Positions 5,309-35,359 of a stretch of 64,000 nucleotides of DNA are shown piece after piece. A program made the position numbers and the translations under genes. The notes beneath the pieces were generated by a model. It worked only from the letters and a program-made list of their open reading frames with translations. It searched no databases and was not told the origin of the DNA. The stretch's first letter is position 1. Each line of letters begins with the position of its first letter. Source of the stretch: Escherichia coli (GTDB lineage Bacteria; Pseudomonadota; Gammaproteobacteria; Enterobacterales; Enterobacteriaceae); the NCBI RefSeq assembly GCF_041886205.1, contig NZ_CP169029.1. One strand, given 5' to 3'.

Positions 5309-5782
5309 ATGAACTACGAGATTAAGCAGGAAGATAAACGTACCGTTGCAGGTTTCCATCTCGTTGGCCCGTGGGAGCAGACGGTAAAGAAAGGTTTTGA
5401 GCAGTTGATGATGTGGGTAGATAACAAAAATATTGTGCCGAAGGAGTGGGTTGCTGTCTATTACGACAATCCAGATGAAACACCCGCCGAAAAATTACGC
5501 TGCGACACCGTCGTGACGGTACCGAATAACTTTACGCTCCCCGAAAACAGTGAGGGCGTCATTCTGACAGAAATTTCAGGTGGTCAGTATGCGGTTGCGG
5601 TGGCTCGTGTAGTCGGTGATGATTTTGCTAAACCCTGGTATCAGTTCTTTAATAGCCTCTTGCAGGACAGTGCTTATGAAATGTTACCAAAGCCCTGCTT
5701 CGAGGTTTATTTGAACAATGGCGCGGAAGATGGGTACTGGGATATCGAAATGTATGTTGCGGTGCAGCCAAAACATCACTAA
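5309..5782 (+). CDS. sbmC: DNA gyrase inhibitor SbmC/GyrI
   Basis: 157 aa; preceded by GGAGG RBS and a LexA box. Confidence 0.9.
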
Positions 5783-5980
5783 TTCATCTCAGGGCGGTGT
5801 GTTAACGCGATGACCACTCTTTTTTTTGAAAGCGAAAAGAGTAAGATGCGCCTTTCAATTTTTTCGCTCCTGCCGGGAAATTACACTGTTCCCGGTTTGT
5901 CCGTCGGATAATTCAGAGGCGCGCCTTCTGGCCGACAGATGAGTTATGAGCGCTTTTAATCTTCATTACGGAGTTTCTGC

Positions 5981-7039
5981 GTGCGTGCCGATAAGTCATT
6001 AAGCCCGTTTGAAATCCGGGTATACCGCCATTACCGCATTGTGCATGGTACTCGGGTCGCGCTGGCATTCCTGCTCACTTTTCTCATTATCCGCCTGTTT
6101 ACTATCCCGGAAAGTACCTGGCCGCTGGTCACCATGGTGGTGATTATGGGGCCAATCTCGTTCTGGGGGAACGTTGTCCCTCGCGCATTCGAACGTATTG
6201 GCGGTACGGTGTTGGGGTCGATTTTAGGTCTTATCGCTCTGCAACTGGAGTTAATCTCGTTACCGCTGATGTTAGTCTGGTGCGCGGCGGCTATGTTTCT
6301 TTGCGGTTGGCTGGCGCTGGGCAAGAAACCGTATCAAGGTTTATTGATTGGGGTGACGCTGGCAATTGTTGTTGGTTCCCCGACAGGTGAAATTAATACG
6401 GCGTTATGGCGAAGCGGCGATGTGATCCTCGGCTCTTTACTGGCAATGTTGTTTACCGGTATCTGGCCACAACGGGCGTTCATCCACTGGCGCATTCAAC
6501 TGGCAAAAAGTCTGACCGAGTATAATCGGGTCTATCAATCTGCATTCTCACCGAACTTACTCGAACGCCCGCGTCTGGAAAGCCATCTACAAAAACTCCT
6601 GACCGATGCCGTGAAAATGCGTGGGCTGATTGCGCCCGCCAGCAAAGAAACCCGTATTCCAAAATCGATATATGAAGGTATCCAGACCATTAATCGCAAT
6701 CTGGTTTGTATGCTGGAGTTGCAAATCAATGCATACTGGGCCACGCGCCCCAGCCATTTCGTGTTATTGAACGCGCAAAAACTTCGTGATACCCAGCATA
6801 TGATGCAGCAAATACTGCTGAGCCTTGTTCATGCGCTGTACGAAGGTAATCCGCAGCCGGTTTTTGCCAATACGGAAAAATTGAACGATGCTGTGGAAGA
6901 GCTGCGTCAGTTGCTGAATAACCACCATGACCTGAAGGTTGTGGAAACACCAATCTATGGTTATGTGTGGCTGAACATGGAAACGGCACATCAGCTTGAG
7001 TTGCTATCGAATCTGATTTGCCGGGCCTTGCGCAAATAA
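5981..7039 (+). CDS. yeeA: Inner membrane protein YeeA (FUSC-like)
   Basis: 352-aa ORF with GTG start, hydrophobic N-terminal half; synteny. Confidence 0.85.
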   Translation: MRADKSLSPFEIRVYRHYRIVHGTRVALAFLLTFLIIRLFTIPESTWPLVTMVVIMGPISFWGNVVPRAFERIGGTVLGSILGLIALQLELISLPLMLVWCAAAMFLCGWLALGKKPYQGLLIGVTLAIVVGSPTGEINTALWRSGDVILGSLLAMLFTGIWPQRAFIHWRIQLAKSLTEYNRVYQSAFSPNLLERPRLESHLQKLLTDAVKMRGLIAPASKETRIPKSIYEGIQTINRNLVCMLELQINAYWATRPSHFVLLNAQKLRDTQHMMQQILLSLVHALYEGNPQPVFANTEKLNDAVEELRQLLNNHHDLKVVETPIYGYVWLNMETAHQLELLSNLICRALRK

Positions 7040-14865: not shown

Positions 14866-14941
14866 TGGCTCCTCTGACTGGACTCGAACCAGTGACATAC
14901 GGATTAACAGTCCGCCGTTCTACCGACTGAACTACAGAGGA
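14866..14941 (-). tRNA. asnV: tRNA-Asn (GUU)
   Basis: Reverse complement equals TCCTCTGTAGTTCAGTCGGTAGAACGGCGGACTGTTAATCCGTATGTCACTGGTTCGAGTCCAGTCAGAGGAGCCA. Confidence 0.95.
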
Positions 14942-17274: not shown

Positions 17275-17350
17275 TGGCTCCTCTGACTGGACTCGAACCA
17301 GTGACATACGGATTAACAGTCCGCCGTTCTACCGACTGAACTACAGAGGA
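17275..17350 (-). tRNA. asnU: tRNA-Asn (GUU)
   Basis: Sequence identical to the other three tRNA-Asn copies. Confidence 0.95.
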
Positions 17351-19098: not shown

Positions 19099-19174
19099 TC
19101 CTCTGTAGTTCAGTCGGTAGAACGGCGGACTGTTAATCCGTATGTCACTGGTTCGAGTCCAGTCAGAGGAGCCA
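19099..19174 (+). tRNA. asnW: tRNA-Asn (GUU)
   Basis: 76-nt tRNA-Asn sequence ending ...GAGGAGCCA. Confidence 0.95.
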
Positions 19175-22241: not shown

Positions 22242-23558
22242 TCAAGCGCGTTGACTGTCTTTCATCAACAAAGCGGTCATTGCGGAAATCAGGCATCCAG
22301 CCAGCAAATAAATGGCGACGCTATGCCAGTTCCCGGCAAAGTAAGTGATGAGTGCAGCGGCAATAAAAGGTGTAAATCCACCGCCAACCACACTGGCAAC
22401 CTGATAACCGACTCCAGCGCCACTATAGCGATAACTGGCACCAAACATTTCGGTAAACATCGGTTGTTGCACACACACCACCATGTCATGCGCAATGTTT
22501 GCCAGCATTATGGAGAAGAAAACTATCCAGAAAATAGATTGTGCTTCAAGCGCCATAAAGAAAGGAAATGCGCTCAACGTTCCGATTAACGTACCTGTGA
22601 TATAAACCCTACGGCGACCAAAACGATCGGCAAGCCAGGCAAAACAGGGAATTGTCAGGCAGCTTAATCCACCTACCAGCAAACCAATATTAAGGAAAAG
22701 TTCGCGCGGTAGCCCCATATTCTGGGTTGAATAATTAAGTGCAAAGGCAGTAACGATGTACATCGTCAGCAATTCGCACAGTCGTAGCGCAATAATCTTC
22801 AGGAAAGCACCGGGATGTCGTAACAGCGCTTCGATAACCGGGATGCGTTTTTTCGCGGCAGCTTGATAATGTTGCTGTTGTTCAAATTCCGCGGACTCCT
22901 CCATGCCATTGCGCACCCACAATGCTCCCAGTACCAGTACGATGCTAAACAGGAAAGGAATGCGCCAGCCCCAGCTTAAAAACTGTTCGTCAGTCGTCAT
23001 CATACTGATCAATGAAACCAGTCCGGTTGAAAGCAGTAAACCTACACCGTAGCCAACTTGTACACCGCTACTGTAAAAGGCTTTTTTATTTTTCGGTGCA
23101 CTTTCAACGGAAAGCAACGCCGCGCCTCCCCATTCGCCGCCGACTGCAAATCCCTGAATGGCACGCAGTGTCACCAGCAAAATAGGTGCCCACCACCCAA
23201 TGGTCGAGAATGAAGGAAGAATACCAATCAAGGCTGTCGCGATGCCCATCATCCAGACGGTCAGCATTAACATGCGCTTACGTCCCAGTCGGTCGCCAAA
23301 GTGACCGAAAATGACACCGCCGAGCGGACGGAAAAGAAATCCGACGCCAAAGGTAGCAAATGCGGCGAGCGTTCCCATCGCCGGGCTTACTTGCGGGAAA
23401 AACTCGCGATTAAACACCAGTGCGGCGGTGATGCCATAGAGTAAAAAATCATACCAGTCGACGACGGCACCAGCGAAGCTGCCTAACGCAGCTCGTCGGG
23501 CGCGACTTAACGAAAGCGTCCCTTCATCGGGACGAGTGGAGATGAGCGTGGAGTCCAT
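22242..23558 (-). CDS. shiA: Shikimate:H+ symporter ShiA (MFS)
   Basis: 438-aa MFS transporter (MDSTLISTRPDEGTLSLSRARRAALGSFAGAVVDWYDFLLYG...). Confidence 0.9.
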   Translation of the reverse strand: MDSTLISTRPDEGTLSLSRARRAALGSFAGAVVDWYDFLLYGITAALVFNREFFPQVSPAMGTLAAFATFGVGFLFRPLGGVIFGHFGDRLGRKRMLMLTVWMMGIATALIGILPSFSTIGWWAPILLVTLRAIQGFAVGGEWGGAALLSVESAPKNKKAFYSSGVQVGYGVGLLLSTGLVSLISMMTTDEQFLSWGWRIPFLFSIVLVLGALWVRNGMEESAEFEQQQHYQAAAKKRIPVIEALLRHPGAFLKIIALRLCELLTMYIVTAFALNYSTQNMGLPRELFLNIGLLVGGLSCLTIPCFAWLADRFGRRRVYITGTLIGTLSAFPFFMALEAQSIFWIVFFSIMLANIAHDMVVCVQQPMFTEMFGASYRYSGAGVGYQVASVVGGGFTPFIAAALITYFAGNWHSVAIYLLAGCLISAMTALLMKDSQRA

Positions 23559-23872: not shown

Positions 23873-23945
23873 ATGTTTTTAGCATCATTGTTGAGACGTA
23901 TTGCATTTAGTTACTACGATTATAAAGCTTATAATTTCAATATTG
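23873..23945 (+). pseudogene. yeeL: yeeL N-terminal 24 codons, separated from the rest by the IS66-family insertion
   Basis: ATG at 23873 with upstream AGGGAGG; frame continues across the 8-bp target duplication into the glycosyltransferase ORF at 26645. Confidence 0.5.
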
Positions 23946-23998
23946 GTAACCGGCTCATTTAAACCGTCTGGTCTGTTTCCTCCGGCTCTACAAAAATA

Positions 23999-24676
23999 AT
24001 GTCCATCATTTTTAATGGACACTATCGTATGAAACACCGGACCTGGATCACTGAAGCTTTACGTCTTCACTTTGAAGAACATTTACCCCGGGTTGTGGCC
24101 GGGCGTCGCCTGGGTGTACCAAAATCAACAGTTTGTAGTATGTTCGTGCGCTTTCGGAGAGCTGGCCTTTCGTGGCCTTTGCCCGCAGGCATGTCGGAGC
24201 AGGAACTTGATGCCTGCCTTTACGGACAATTTTCCACGGTACCAGTCGTACGTCCTGAAAGCACCGTTATATCCGAAGCCCCCGTGGTAAAAAAACGTCC
24301 CCGGCGGCCCAACTTCCCTTATGAGTTTAAAATCGCCTTAGTGGAGCAGTCACTGCAGCCCGGAGCCTGTGTGGCGCAGATCGCCCGGGAAAACGGAATC
24401 AACGATAACCTGCTCTTCAACTGGCGCCATCAATACCGGAAAGGTGGCCTGCTGCCTTCCGGAAAAAATATGCCGGCACTGCTTCCCGTGACGTTAACGC
24501 CGGAGCCGGATAATAAAATCCCGGCCCCCGCACAGGAACCAGAGCAGATAAATACACCGTCCGACAGTCTGTGTTGTGAGCTGGTTCTGCCGGCCGGAAC
24601 TCTCAGGCTTAAAGGTAAACTGACGCCGGCGTTATTACAGACACTTATCCGCGAAATAAAAGGGAGCAGCCACTGA
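23999..24676 (+). CDS. IS66-family accessory protein (TnpA-like, HTH); start codon uncertain
   Basis: C-terminal half ...GACVAQIARENGINDNLLFNWRHQYRKG... resembles IS66 Orf1; stop overlaps the next start (ATGA). Confidence 0.7.
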   Translation: MSIIFNGHYRMKHRTWITEALRLHFEEHLPRVVAGRRLGVPKSTVCSMFVRFRRAGLSWPLPAGMSEQELDACLYGQFSTVPVVRPESTVISEAPVVKKRPRRPNFPYEFKIALVEQSLQPGACVAQIARENGINDNLLFNWRHQYRKGGLLPSGKNMPALLPVTLTPEPDNKIPAPAQEPEQINTPSDSLCCELVLPAGTLRLKGKLTPALLQTLIREIKGSSH

Positions 24677-25023
24677 TGATATCTCTCCCTGCAGGTTCGC
24701 GTATCTGGCTGGTTGCAGGTATCACCGATATGCGAAATGGCTTTAACGGCCTGGCATCAAAAGTTCAGAACGTCCTGAAGGATGACCCGTTCTCCGGACA
24801 CCTGTTCATCTTCCGCGGACGCCGGGGTGACCAGATAAAAGTGTTGTGGGCTGACAGTGACGGACTGTGCCTCTTCACCAAACGCCTGGAGCGGGGCCGC
24901 TTCGTCTGGCCAGTCACCCGTGACGGCAAGGTGCACCTTACTCCGGCTCAGTTATCCATGCTTCTTGAAGGTATCAACTGGAAGCACCCGAAACGAACGG
25001 AACGCGCTGGAATCCGCATATAA
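24676..25023 (+). CDS. tnpB: IS66-family TnpB
   Basis: 115 aa: MISLPAGSRIWLVAGITDMRNGFNGLASKVQNVL... Confidence 0.85.
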   Translation: MISLPAGSRIWLVAGITDMRNGFNGLASKVQNVLKDDPFSGHLFIFRGRRGDQIKVLWADSDGLCLFTKRLERGRFVWPVTRDGKVHLTPAQLSMLLEGINWKHPKRTERAGIRI

Positions 25024-25042
25024 CCCGTTGTAAAGTGAGGAT

Positions 25043-26614
25043 ATGGACACCTCACTTGCTCATGAGAACGCCCGCCTGCGGGCACTGTTGCAGACGCAAC
25101 AGGACACCATCCGCCAGATGGCTGAATACAACCGCCTGCTCTCACAGCGGGTGGCGGCTTATGCTTCCGAAATCAACCGGCTGAAGGCGCTGGTTGCGAA
25201 ACTGCAACGTATGCAGTTCGGTAAAAGCTCAGAAAAACTTCGTGCAAAAACCGAACGGCAGATACAGGAAGCACAGGAGCGAATCAGCGCACTTCAGGAA
25301 GAAATGGCGGAAACGCTGGGTGAGCAATATGACCCGGTACTGCCATCCGCCCTGCGCCAGTCTTCAGCCCGTAAACCGTTACCGGCCTCACTTCCCCGTG
25401 AAACCCGGGTTATCCGGCCGGAAGAGGAATGCTGTCCTGCCTGTGGTGGTGAACTCAGTTCTCTGGGATGTGATGTGTCAGAGCAACTGGAGCTTATCAG
25501 CAGCGCCTTTAAGGTTATCGAAACACAACGTCCGAAACAGGCCTGTTGCCGGTGCGACCATATCGTGCAGGCACCAGTACCTTCAAAACCCATTGCACGC
25601 AGTTATGCCGGAGCGGGGCTTCTGGCCCATGTTGTCACCGGGAAATATGCAGACCATCTGCCGTTATACCGCCAGTCAGAAATATACCGTCGTCAGGGAG
25701 TGGAGCTGAGCCGTGCCACACTGGGGCGCTGGACAGGTGCTGTTGCTGAACTGCTGGAGCCGCTGTATGACGTCCTGCGCCAGTATGTGCTGATGCCCGG
25801 TAAAGTCCATGCTGATGATATCCCCGTCCCGGTCCAGGAGCCGGGCAGCGGTAAAACCCGGACAGCCCGGCTGTGGGTCTACGTCCGTGATGACCGTAAC
25901 GCCGGTTCACAGATGCCCCCGGCGGTCTGGTTCGCGTACAGTCCGGACCGGAAAGGTATCCATCCACAAAATCACCTGGCCGGTTACAGCGGTGTGCTTC
26001 AGGCCGATGCTTACGGTGGTTACCGGGCGTTATACGAATCCGGCAGAATAACGGAAGCCGCGTGTATGGCTCATGCCCGGAGAAAAATCCACGATGTGCA
26101 TGCAAGAGCGTCCACCTACATCACCACGGAAGCCCTGCAGCGTATCGGTGAACTGTATGCCATCGAGGCAGAGGTCCGGGGCTGTTCAGCAGAACAGCGT
26201 CTGGCGGCAAGAAAAGCCAGAGCCGCGCCACTGATGCAGTCACTGTATGACTGGATACAGCAACAGATGAAAACACTGTCGCGTCACTCAGATACGGCAA
26301 AAGCGTTCGCATACCTGCTGAAACAGTGGGATGCACTGAACGTGTACTGCAGTAATGGCTGGGTGGAAATCGACAACAACATCGCAGAGAACGCCTTACG
26401 GGGAGTGGCCGTAGGCCGGAAAAACTGGATGTTCGCGGGTTCCGACAGCGGTGGTGAACATGCGGCGGTGTTGTACTCGCTGATCGGCACATGCCGTCTG
26501 AACAATGTGGAGCCAGAAAAGTGGCTGCGTTACGTCATTGAACATATCCAGGACTGGCCGGCAAACCGGGTACGCGATCTGTTGCCCTGGAAAGTTGATC
26601 TGAGCTCTCAGTAA
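25043..26614 (+). CDS. IS66-family transposase TnpC
   Basis: 523 aa with leucine-zipper N-terminus, CxxC zinc-finger motifs and DDE core; C-terminus [16 protein letters not shown]. Confidence 0.9.
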
Positions 26615-26644
26615 ATATCAATACGGTTCTGACGAGTCGCTTAC

Positions 26645-27632
26645 CAATATTGAAAAAACAGACTTTGTTGTCATCCATATTCCCGATCAGATTGGCGATG
26701 CTATGGCCATCTTTCCTGTTATTCGGGCGCTTGAATTGCATAAAATTAAGCATCTTTTAATTGTAACGTCGACAATTAATTTAGAAGTCTTTAATGCGCT
26801 TAAACTTGAACAGACTAAATTAACATTAGTCACAATGACTATGCAGGATCACGCAACATTAAAAGAAATAAAAGATTTAGCAAAGAACATAACACAGCAA
26901 TACGGTACGCCGGATCTTTGCATTGAGGGGATGCGTAAAAAGAACCTGAAAACGATGTTATTTATCAGTCAGTTGAAAGCAAAAACGAATTTTCAGGTTG
27001 TTGGTATAACCATGAATTGCTTCTCCCCTTTGTGCAAGAACGCGTCCCGTATGGATCAGAAACTCCGGGCTCCCGTACCTATGACATGGGCATTTATGAT
27101 GCGTGAGGCGGGTTTTCCAGCAGTCAGGCCAATATATGAATTGCCACTAAGTGAGGATGTACTCGATGAGGTGCGCGAGGAAATGCGATCGTTAGGATCT
27201 TACATTGCGTTCAATTTAGAAGGTAGCTCGCAGGAACGTACATTTTCATTATCGATTGCAGAAAATCTAATAGCAAAAATTTAAAGTGAAACAGATATAC
27301 CAATAGTGATCGTTCATGGACCCAAAGGTGAAGATAAAGCCAGGGCATTAGTGGATTGTTATAATAATGTCTACCGTTTATCCTTACCACCCTCGATTAA
27401 ACGTTCAGCAGCAATCATAAAAGATGCTTATATCGCAATAACTCCTGACACCTCAATATTACATATGGCAAGTGCCTATAATACCCCTGTTGTTGCAATT
27501 TATGCTGATTACAAAACGCGATGGCCCGCAATGGCCGATGTCTCGGAGTCAGTCGTCGTTGGGCAAAAAATTGACAATATAAGTCTGGATGAATTCGCAA
27601 AGGCATTAAAAAGTGTTTTGGCGAGAATATGA
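26645..27632 (+). pseudogene. yeeL: Glycosyltransferase family 9 (heptosyltransferase-like) pseudogene: IS-interrupted plus in-frame TAA
   Basis: N-terminus ...KTDFVVIHIPDQIGDAMAIFPVIRAL; C-terminal ...ITPDTSILHMASAYNTPVVAIYA motif; track ORFs 26703-27284 and 27306-27632 are in the same frame separated by TAA at 27282. Confidence 0.75.
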
Positions 27633-27842: not shown

Positions 27843-27874
27843 TAAAAAAGAGTGCCCCGAATGGAACACTCTTT
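27843..27874 (-). terminator. Rho-independent terminator after yeeJ
   Basis: AGAGTGTTCC...GGGGCACTCT hairpin followed by T6 on the minus strand. Confidence 0.6.
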
Positions 27875-27893: not shown

Positions 27894-34970
<7,077 letters not shown>

Positions 34971-35283
34971 GCTTACCTTCCCTGAACGAGCTAACATAAA
35001 TGCGCCCTTTCTAGCACAGCGAAAAAATGTAAATACTGATAGCAATATGATTGAAAATTAATAACTTTTCGTTAGGCAGTTTTGGGTGTGAGTTGCAAGA
35101 GGGGAGACTACTGAATAACTCAAGTTTTATAATCGAGGGGAAAATGGTGATGGCGTTCATAGCAAAACGCCCTCAACCATAAAGGTCGAGGGCGCTTAAG
35201 ATGTTAAAAACCCGCTATCCGTTAAAAAACAATGTTCAACTAAGGTCAGTGACATTGCGCTAAAAAAGCGAATTATTAGAATT

Positions 35284-35359
35284 TGGCTCCTCTGACTGGA
35301 CTCGAACCAGTGACATACGGATTAACAGTCCGCCGTTCTACCGACTGAACTACAGAGGA
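35284..35359 (-). tRNA. asnT: tRNA-Asn (GUU)
   Basis: Identical 76-nt tRNA-Asn sequence. Confidence 0.95.

Follow-up and report, generated by a model that had tools for sequence, protein, structure and literature searches.

Two lesions in yeeL and the order in which they arose

In the 64,000-nucleotide (nt) stretch of Escherichia coli DNA analysed here (contig NZ_CP169029.1, hereafter the window), the gene yeeL, whose product belongs to glycosyltransferase family 9 (GT9), was found to be interrupted twice, once by a TAA codon within its reading frame and once by a complete insertion sequence (IS) of the IS66 family. The finding is real and already known in kind, the stop codon being that of the catalogued K-12 pseudogene (Q235*). 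The explanation that we hold with high confidence is a two-step origin of this non-functional remnant, in which an old nonsense mutation, inherited by E. coli K-12 and by many other strains, would have been followed by a recent IS insertion. Both lesions had been noticed in an initial annotation made from the window sequence, which also proposed that the frame could be restored by excising the IS and one copy of the duplication that flanks it. This reconstruction held: a frame of 1053 nt on the + strand was recovered, running from the ATG at 23873 to the TGA at 27630-27632 (join of 23873-23945 and 26653-27632), with one internal stop, the TAA at 27282-27284 (codon 235), and with the rest in frame up to 27632. 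The ATG at 23873 is the start used by the Prokaryotic Genome Annotation Pipeline (PGAP) for the orthologue in K-12, O157 and other genomes. The IS had been placed at codon 24, which is right within one codon, as the 8-bp target-site duplication CAATATTG spans codons 22-25; the direct repeat flanking the element matched at a length of 8 and at no other length. As now arranged, the 5′ fragment of yeeL reads into the IS and stops at a TAA at 23960-23962, which gives a 29-amino acid (aa) peptide. Coordinates of all features are collected in Table 1.

The inserted element exhibits the features shared by ISCro1 and the IS66 family, namely the three-gene tnpA-tnpB-tnpC layout with an IS66 DDE transposase, the 8-bp target duplication and the inverted repeats starting with GTAA. 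Matches to the Pfam families PF01527, PF05717, PF03050, PF13817, PF13007 and PF13005 were found across the element, and TnpC scored 478 bits with the NCBIfam model for the IS66 transposase (NF033517), vs a cut-off of 180. Identity to the copies labelled as ISCro1 family by PGAP was 99-100%, with no structural difference, and reached 100% over 2699 bp with the annotated copy of strain 2013C-3181. The length quoted for the ISCro1 copy of strain EC958 is 2,824 bp (PMC8764528), vs 2,699 bp for the window element. The copy in yeeL is the only ISCro1-type element in the window.

Comparison with the yeeL gene of K-12 MG1655, which the initial annotation had suggested for the TAA, revealed an identical stop codon and a single nucleotide difference over the 1053 nt, C in the window and A in K-12 at gene nt 469 (Arg157 and Ser157, respectively). 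The K-12 gene is flagged by PGAP, which describes it as 'glycosyltransferase family 9 protein, internal stop'. This pseudogene (b4497) shares with the window gene the locus between shiA and yeeJ, the start, the length and the TAA at codon 235, but, unlike the window gene, it contains no IS. K-12 yeeL serves in metabolic engineering as a dispensable or neutral site for chromosomal integration (PMC11566304).

The frequency of the nonsense allele was determined in a collection of 5426 complete E. coli genomes, using 55-mers centred on the variable base and every 28-base seed spanning that base. Codon 235 was TAA in 770 genomes and CAA (Gln) in 4149, and the CAA codon was found along with an intact 350-codon yeeL in O157:H7, in an O2:H6 strain and in others. 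LR-27, which of all the complete genomes is nearest to the window (99.8% over 24 kb), carries the TAA together with a single CAATATTG, that is, an empty IS site, with identical flanking spacers and 1 nt difference in the gene; R2, also among the closest genomes (99.8% over 24 kb), likewise lacks the IS. The presence of the TAA next to an empty site in LR-27 indicates that the nonsense mutation preceded the IS, so that yeeL was already dead when the element arrived. When the yeeL-IS junction of the window was searched as one contiguous match, none was obtained among the 5426 complete genomes, which argues that the insertion is the later event. In strain fS25a, yeeL is 99.8-100% identical to the window allele over gene nt 1-717, yet with CAA at codon 235, which shows what the ancestral state was on the background of the window allele. 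Altogether, these comparisons establish the two lesions and the order in which they occurred.

YeeL as a predicted family 9 glycosyltransferase

The similarity to family 9 claimed in the initial annotation was borne out by profile search: the restored YeeL sequence matched Pfam Glyco_transf_9 (PF01075) with 32.1 bits (cut-off 22, E 9.4e-8) over aa 188-321, and the PF01075 match is precomputed for nearly all YeeL homologues. An alignment of 38 YeeL homologues served to model the intact O157 allele with AlphaFold (pLDDT 87, pTM 0.85). The modelled protein has the GT-B fold with two Rossmann domains and is nearest to solved GT9 enzymes. The best Foldseek matches (3tov, WaaF and WaaC) are all GT9 proteins, and structure comparison gave values of 27.9 for 3tov (Veillonella GT9), 24.6 for WaaF (1psw), 23.7 for WaaC (2h1f) and 16.2 for TibC (4rap). 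Sequence identity to WaaC, WaaF and 3tov is just 12-15%; a phmmer search of the PDB with the single YeeL sequence gave no match, and the family profile alone reached WaaC, marginally.

Residues D290, T291 and H295 are invariant in the 38 homologues, and the family profile aligns D290-T291...H295 with D261-T262...H266 of WaaC, the conserved sugar-nucleotide-binding motif, whose residues have a well-established functional role in that enzyme. Across five genera 28 residues are invariant, and a further invariant motif, G39-D40, lies in the N-terminal part of YeeL. By analogy with WaaC, these motifs are likely to have a catalytic role in YeeL.

The scores obtained with the heptosyltransferase equivalog models were far below their cut-offs: 39.7 vs 185.3 for TIGR02193, 19.5 vs 134.6 for TIGR02195, 17.3 vs 170.2 for TIGR02201 and 15.9 vs 467 for NF007742. 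Furthermore, yeeL lies outside the waa cluster, unlike the genes for WaaC and WaaF, and has a narrow taxonomic range. The GT9 fold matches, together with the wide miss of the models for heptosyltransferases I, II and III, indicate that YeeL is a predicted glycosyltransferase forming a distinct GT9 subfamily, and that it is not WaaC, WaaF or WaaQ.

Consequences of the two lesions

The region is the E. coli chromosomal gene yeeL, whose product, when the gene is intact, is predicted to be a cytoplasmic glycosyltransferase of 350 aa with a GT-B fold, belonging to CAZy/Pfam family 9. In the older step, a C to T transition would have converted the Gln235 codon from CAA into TAA on a K-12-type allele, probably in phylogroup A, with the predicted loss of the last 116 residues including the D290-T291...H295 donor-binding motif, and this allele would then have passed to K-12 and to about 14% of the complete E. 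coli genomes. In the recent step, an intact ISCro1-type element of the IS66 family would have inserted at gene nt 66-73, duplicating 8 bp, so that the promoter and the first 24 codons are presumably cut off from the remainder of the gene, in which the invariant G39-D40 motif lies. The remaining yeeL open reading frames (ORFs) lack either G39-D40 or the donor motif, and an active enzyme is not expected from either fragment, so that any residual function would probably be lost.

Several points weigh against this two-step account. The word 'recent' for the IS rests on the nearest relatives, the source strain itself being outside the complete-genome collection. The Pfam and NCBIfam similarity of YeeL is weak, is given by the C-terminal half alone and does not support the assignment of a donor sugar. 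In addition, a 193-aa ORF from Met42 (26703-27284, the longest left in the middle fragment) and a 108-aa ORF (27306-27632), which restarts at a GTG 8 codons past the TAA, persist in the window, and residual polypeptides are conceivable. The second of these ORFs is what would speak for a split yeeL that still works through readthrough, restart or fragment complementation. Taken together with the possibility that the TAA arose from faulty sequencing or assembly, we consider this alternative very improbable. As many as 770 independent complete genomes, that of K-12 among them, have the TAA, on which ground the error was rejected; in the model the codon falls inside the C-terminal Rossmann domain, within the helix formed by residues 224-237 and away from a domain boundary; and the IS of the window detaches the first 24 codons, with the native start of translation, from the segment with G39-D40.

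Distribution of yeeL and its relation to yeeJ

The yeeL gene is AT-rich (38.8% GC, 35.6% GC at third codon positions) beside shiA, amn and yeeJ, which have about 50% GC, and it is convergent with yeeJ, from which it is separated by a spacer of 261 bp. Both observations had been made in the initial annotation, where they were read as the mark of a horizontally acquired surface-glycosylation gene, and this part did not hold. At its strongest, such a reading would have yeeL gained horizontally together with yeeJ and encoding a dedicated transferase for YeeJ, like Aah for AIDA-I and TibC for TibA. Base composition and the close convergent arrangement are what favour it, and TibC and Aah, of the BAHT family, are indeed GT-B enzymes related to GT9, just as E. 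coli yeeL adjoins an adhesin gene. We nevertheless judge it improbable on several grounds. The gene is nearly universal, being found at the same locus in 5268 of the 5426 E. coli genomes (97%). Its relatives are limited to Escherichia/Shigella, Pseudocitrobacter, an enterobacterium, Erwinia and Rosenbergiella, and no adjacent adhesin was found in five contexts other than that of E. coli: Pseudocitrobacter cyperus has a homologue 67% identical in the order amn-shiA-yeeL-mtfA, with no yeeJ; a variant 72% identical, found in gut metagenomes, is flanked by hchA and mtfA; E. albertii carries its copy at another locus; and the copies of Erwinia and Rosenbergiella follow a gene for a major facilitator superfamily (MFS) transporter. 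The aah-aidA and tibC-tibA pairs are operons, whereas the convergent yeeL and yeeJ cannot form one, and the adhesin neighbourhood is not conserved in other genera. Neither TibC nor Aah is the closest relative of YeeL, and searches of the PDB by sequence and by profile did not recover TibC at E<=1. Finally, yeeJ is often a pseudogene in genomes with intact yeeL.

The presence of yeeL in nearly all E. coli genomes and of the 67% identical homologue in the Pseudocitrobacter arrangement suggests that any transfer of the gene into the E. coli lineage would be ancient and unrelated to yeeJ. The occurrence of yeeL relatives without yeeJ in other genera suggests that yeeJ, which lies between yeeL and the tRNA-Asn gene at 35284-35359, looks like a later inserted island. 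Pairwise comparison of divergent intact E. coli yeeL alleles gave dN/dS values of ~0.1-0.25, which points to an intact gene under purifying selection and maintained by it. These comparative data correct the evolutionary interpretation given initially: yeeL is a near-core gene that is not linked to yeeJ and that is maintained by selection when intact, and YeeL is not to be presumed a partner of YeeJ.

The finding in the window is in itself of small consequence, and the extra IS merely marks the lineage of this strain. The intact gene, present in about three quarters of the complete E. coli genomes, encodes a conserved and, as judged from its substitution pattern, selectively maintained predicted GT9 enzyme. 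Because yeeL is broken in K-12 while the intact gene is common elsewhere, work on K-12 cannot reveal the function of YeeL.

A transporter gene of the MFS recurs as a neighbour of yeeL. In Erwinia persicina and Rosenbergiella nectarea the gene for the YeeL homologue shares its strand with an MFS transporter gene and lies ~150 bp downstream of it; E. coli and Pseudocitrobacter have yeeL in divergent orientation to shiA, which also encodes an MFS transporter.

Recurrent IS insertions in yeeL

To detect ISCro1-type elements in yeeL, the genome collection was searched with chimeric queries, each joining 200 nt of the yeeL 5′ flank to 200 nt of one IS end, and all the resulting loci were mapped by blastn. 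Insertions were found in 16 of the 5426 genomes, 7 in the orientation seen in the window and 9 inverted. They correspond to 14 distinct sites, which together with that of the window make at least 15, in both orientations (Table 1). An 8-bp overlap was observed at 12 of the 16 loci, and the rest were within a few bases or rearranged. No shared motif was detected among the 15 duplicated 8-mers beyond AT-richness. Insertions of IS66-family elements in yeeL had already been annotated by PGAP in several genomes.

Six of the IS-bearing alleles become intact 350-codon genes after removal of the IS. Where codon 235 could be read in the IS-bearing genomes of the collection, it was TAA in 3 and CAA in 11, in agreement with the allele frequencies (binomial p 0.47). 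The initial annotation had taken the two lesions of the window as a sign that the gene was dispensable. This stands for the present lineage; as a general argument it is weak, because IS hits are proportional to allele frequencies, and the dN/dS values given above speak against it.

The same chimeric design, applied in both orientations to the first ~770 nt of two control genes, shiA (50% GC) and hprS (40% GC), detected no ISCro1 insertion. If the ~5400-6800 IS-end matches were placed uniformly over a 5-Mb genome, ~0.85 hits would be expected in the interval scanned, and the Poisson probability of at least 14 is ~5e-13; this estimate is rough and favours the null, since many of the IS copies are plasmid-borne or clonal. 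An expectation below 1 is set against at least 15 independent ISCro1 sites within ~700 bp of yeeL.

From these data we lean, with some reserve, towards the view that ISCro1 and other IS land preferentially in yeeL, a target zone not reported before, through a strong regional target preference or through recurrent selection for loss of the GT9 enzyme. With respect to the former, we see about an even chance that a property of its DNA, which is AT-rich and possibly bound by nucleoid proteins, makes yeeL a regional hot spot of ISCro1 transposition, and that insertions persist there as the gene is expendable. The spread of the 14 sites of the collection and that of the window over both orientations, the mostly AT-rich duplicated 8-mers without a consensus, the excess over uniform placement and the absence of insertions in the control genes are consistent with such a property. 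So is the fact that in some genomes where the query matches just 2-3 places (2 in HH194M, 3 in J6) one of these lies in yeeL, and that the IS sites differ between 2013C-3181 and FDAARGOS_1059 although their yeeL alleles are identical. On the other hand, shiA and hprS are functional, and purifying selection could purge insertions from them; the absence of hits in hprS, which is nearly as AT-rich, shows that AT content by itself does not suffice; and both the binding of nucleoid proteins and the transposition preference at yeeL are putative.

It is rather doubtful, in our opinion, that selection for enzyme loss, acting for instance through a changed surface or increased motility, drives the repeated disruption in place of neutral decay or the target choice of the IS. 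The number of distinct ISCro1 sites, six of them in alleles otherwise intact, would fit such selection, as would the presence in yeeL of IS1, IS1X2, ISEc48 and tandem ISCro1, the Q235* allele and the many truncated 'partial' proteins of Shigella sonnei as further losses. A phenotype in the same direction comes from transposon-directed insertion-site sequencing (TraDIS) of the ST131 strain EC958, where Tn5 insertions in the intact yeeL (EC958_2299) were enriched in the hyper-motile pool with a logFC of 7.46 (PMC5425062, Table 1); selection for loss would fit this result, which lacks individual validation. Against it stand the long-term retention of the gene, seen in its dN/dS and in the 4149 genomes with CAA, the occurrence of IS-bearing yeeL in just 16 of the 5426 genomes, and the lack of enrichment of IS hits on either codon-235 allele. 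The excess of ISCro1 in yeeL, whichever its cause, is the only element of this locus that might repay further work, as a natural system for studying target choice of the IS66 family or whether loss of YeeL is advantageous.

The TraDIS hit was the only phenotype lead for YeeL in our literature search, which found no paper on YeeL function or on IS targeting of yeeL; neither yeeL nor yeeJ is mentioned in a large bioRxiv survey of mobile-element insertions. The region upstream of afaA has been described as a hot spot of IS integration in which ISCro1 is involved (PMC8764528).

Other elements were also observed in yeeL. Strain 21310 has ISCro1 and IS1, 98206 has ISCro1 and ISEc48, and PSS-16 has IS1A alone. 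In PS2Canimalfeces12, which carries ISCro1 and IS1X2, the 3′ end of yeeL is lost, and in fS25a a full and a truncated ISCro1 lie in tandem within the gene. In TW10690, shiA is split by an IS5-family element and yeeL contains ISCro1, which indicates that the whole locus tolerates IS insertions. Shigella sonnei contributes clusters of 'partial' YeeL proteins (P0040, P0046 and P0089) of 200-297 aa with 421 to 1984 member sequences, which suggests another lineage-wide disruption, possibly at contig breaks induced by IS.

Coordinates and neighbouring genes

Table 1. Features of the yeeL locus in the window, and sites of ISCro1 target duplications in yeeL of the window and of other E. coli strains. 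Sites given as gene nt are numbered along yeeL; for these, the third column gives the orientation of the element relative to that in the window.
Feature	Position	Strand or orientation	Remarks
shiA, shikimate transporter gene	22242-23558	-	ORF and PGAP name; divergent neighbour
yeeL 5′ fragment	23873-23945	+	codons 1-24 and first base of codon 25; sequence and reconstruction
Left target-site duplication CAATATTG, 8 bp	23938-23945		gene nt 66-73, codons 22-25
Complete IS66-family element, PGAP label 'ISCro1 family'	23946-26644	+	2699 bp; imperfect terminal inverted repeats starting GTAA
tnpA, IS66 accessory protein, 225 aa	23999-24676	+	HTH_Tnp_1, PF01527, E 8.6e-15; PGAP name
tnpB, IS66 Orf2-like protein, 115 aa	24676-25023	+	PF05717, E 4.7e-40
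tnpC, IS66-family DDE transposase, 523 aa	25043-26614	+	DDE_Tnp_IS66, PF03050, E 8.7e-103; zf-IS66, LZ_Tnp_IS66 and C-terminal element domains
Right target-site duplication CAATATTG, 8 bp	26645-26652		exact copy of left repeat
yeeL middle fragment	26653-27281	+	remainder of codon 25 to codon 234; predicted N-terminal Rossmann-like domain and beginning of C-terminal domain (AlphaFold secondary structure)
In-frame TAA, codon 235	27282-27284	+	nonsense mutation of CAA (Gln); K-12 allele
yeeL 3′ fragment	27285-27632	+	codons 236-350 and TGA; D290-T291...H295 motif inside, now untranslated
Terminator-like hairpin	27847-27874	-	yeeL-yeeJ spacer, directly downstream of yeeJ stop codon; consensus scan only
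yeeJ, inverse autotransporter adhesin gene	27894-35045	-	ORF and PGAP orthologue name; convergent neighbour, outside lesion
ISCro1 duplication in yeeL	gene nt 66-73	as in window	window
ISCro1 duplication in yeeL	gene nt ~180-187	as in window	SHP24
ISCro1 duplication in yeeL	gene nt 220-227	as in window	HH194M
ISCro1 duplication in yeeL	gene nt 254-261	as in window	TW10690
ISCro1 duplication in yeeL	gene nt 313-320	as in window	2013C-3181
ISCro1 duplication in yeeL	gene nt ~630-637	as in window	PS2Canimalfeces12
ISCro1 duplication in yeeL	gene nt 718-725	as in window	FDAARGOS_1059
ISCro1 duplication in yeeL	gene nt 754-761	as in window	GZ2408C
ISCro1 duplication in yeeL	gene nt 55-62	inverted	98206
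ISCro1 duplication in yeeL	gene nt 73-80	inverted	fS25a
ISCro1 duplication in yeeL	gene nt ~160-167	inverted	21310
ISCro1 duplication in yeeL	gene nt 267-274	inverted	EC96
ISCro1 duplication in yeeL	gene nt 377-384	inverted	B19374, CUVET21-37, WWCOL-315
ISCro1 duplication in yeeL	gene nt 513-520	inverted	J6
ISCro1 duplication in yeeL	gene nt ~664-671	inverted	Res13-Lact-PEA12-26

The yeeJ gene of the window is an uninterrupted ORF of 2383 codons, and PGAP calls it frameshifted, truncated or partial in many of the other genomes inspected. In a derivative of K-12, a secondary integration of prophage phi80 has been placed in the interval that separates yeeJ from yeeL (PMC6016239). The window also contains four tRNA-Asn(GTT) genes, at 14866-14941, 17275-17350, 19099-19174 and 35284-35359.

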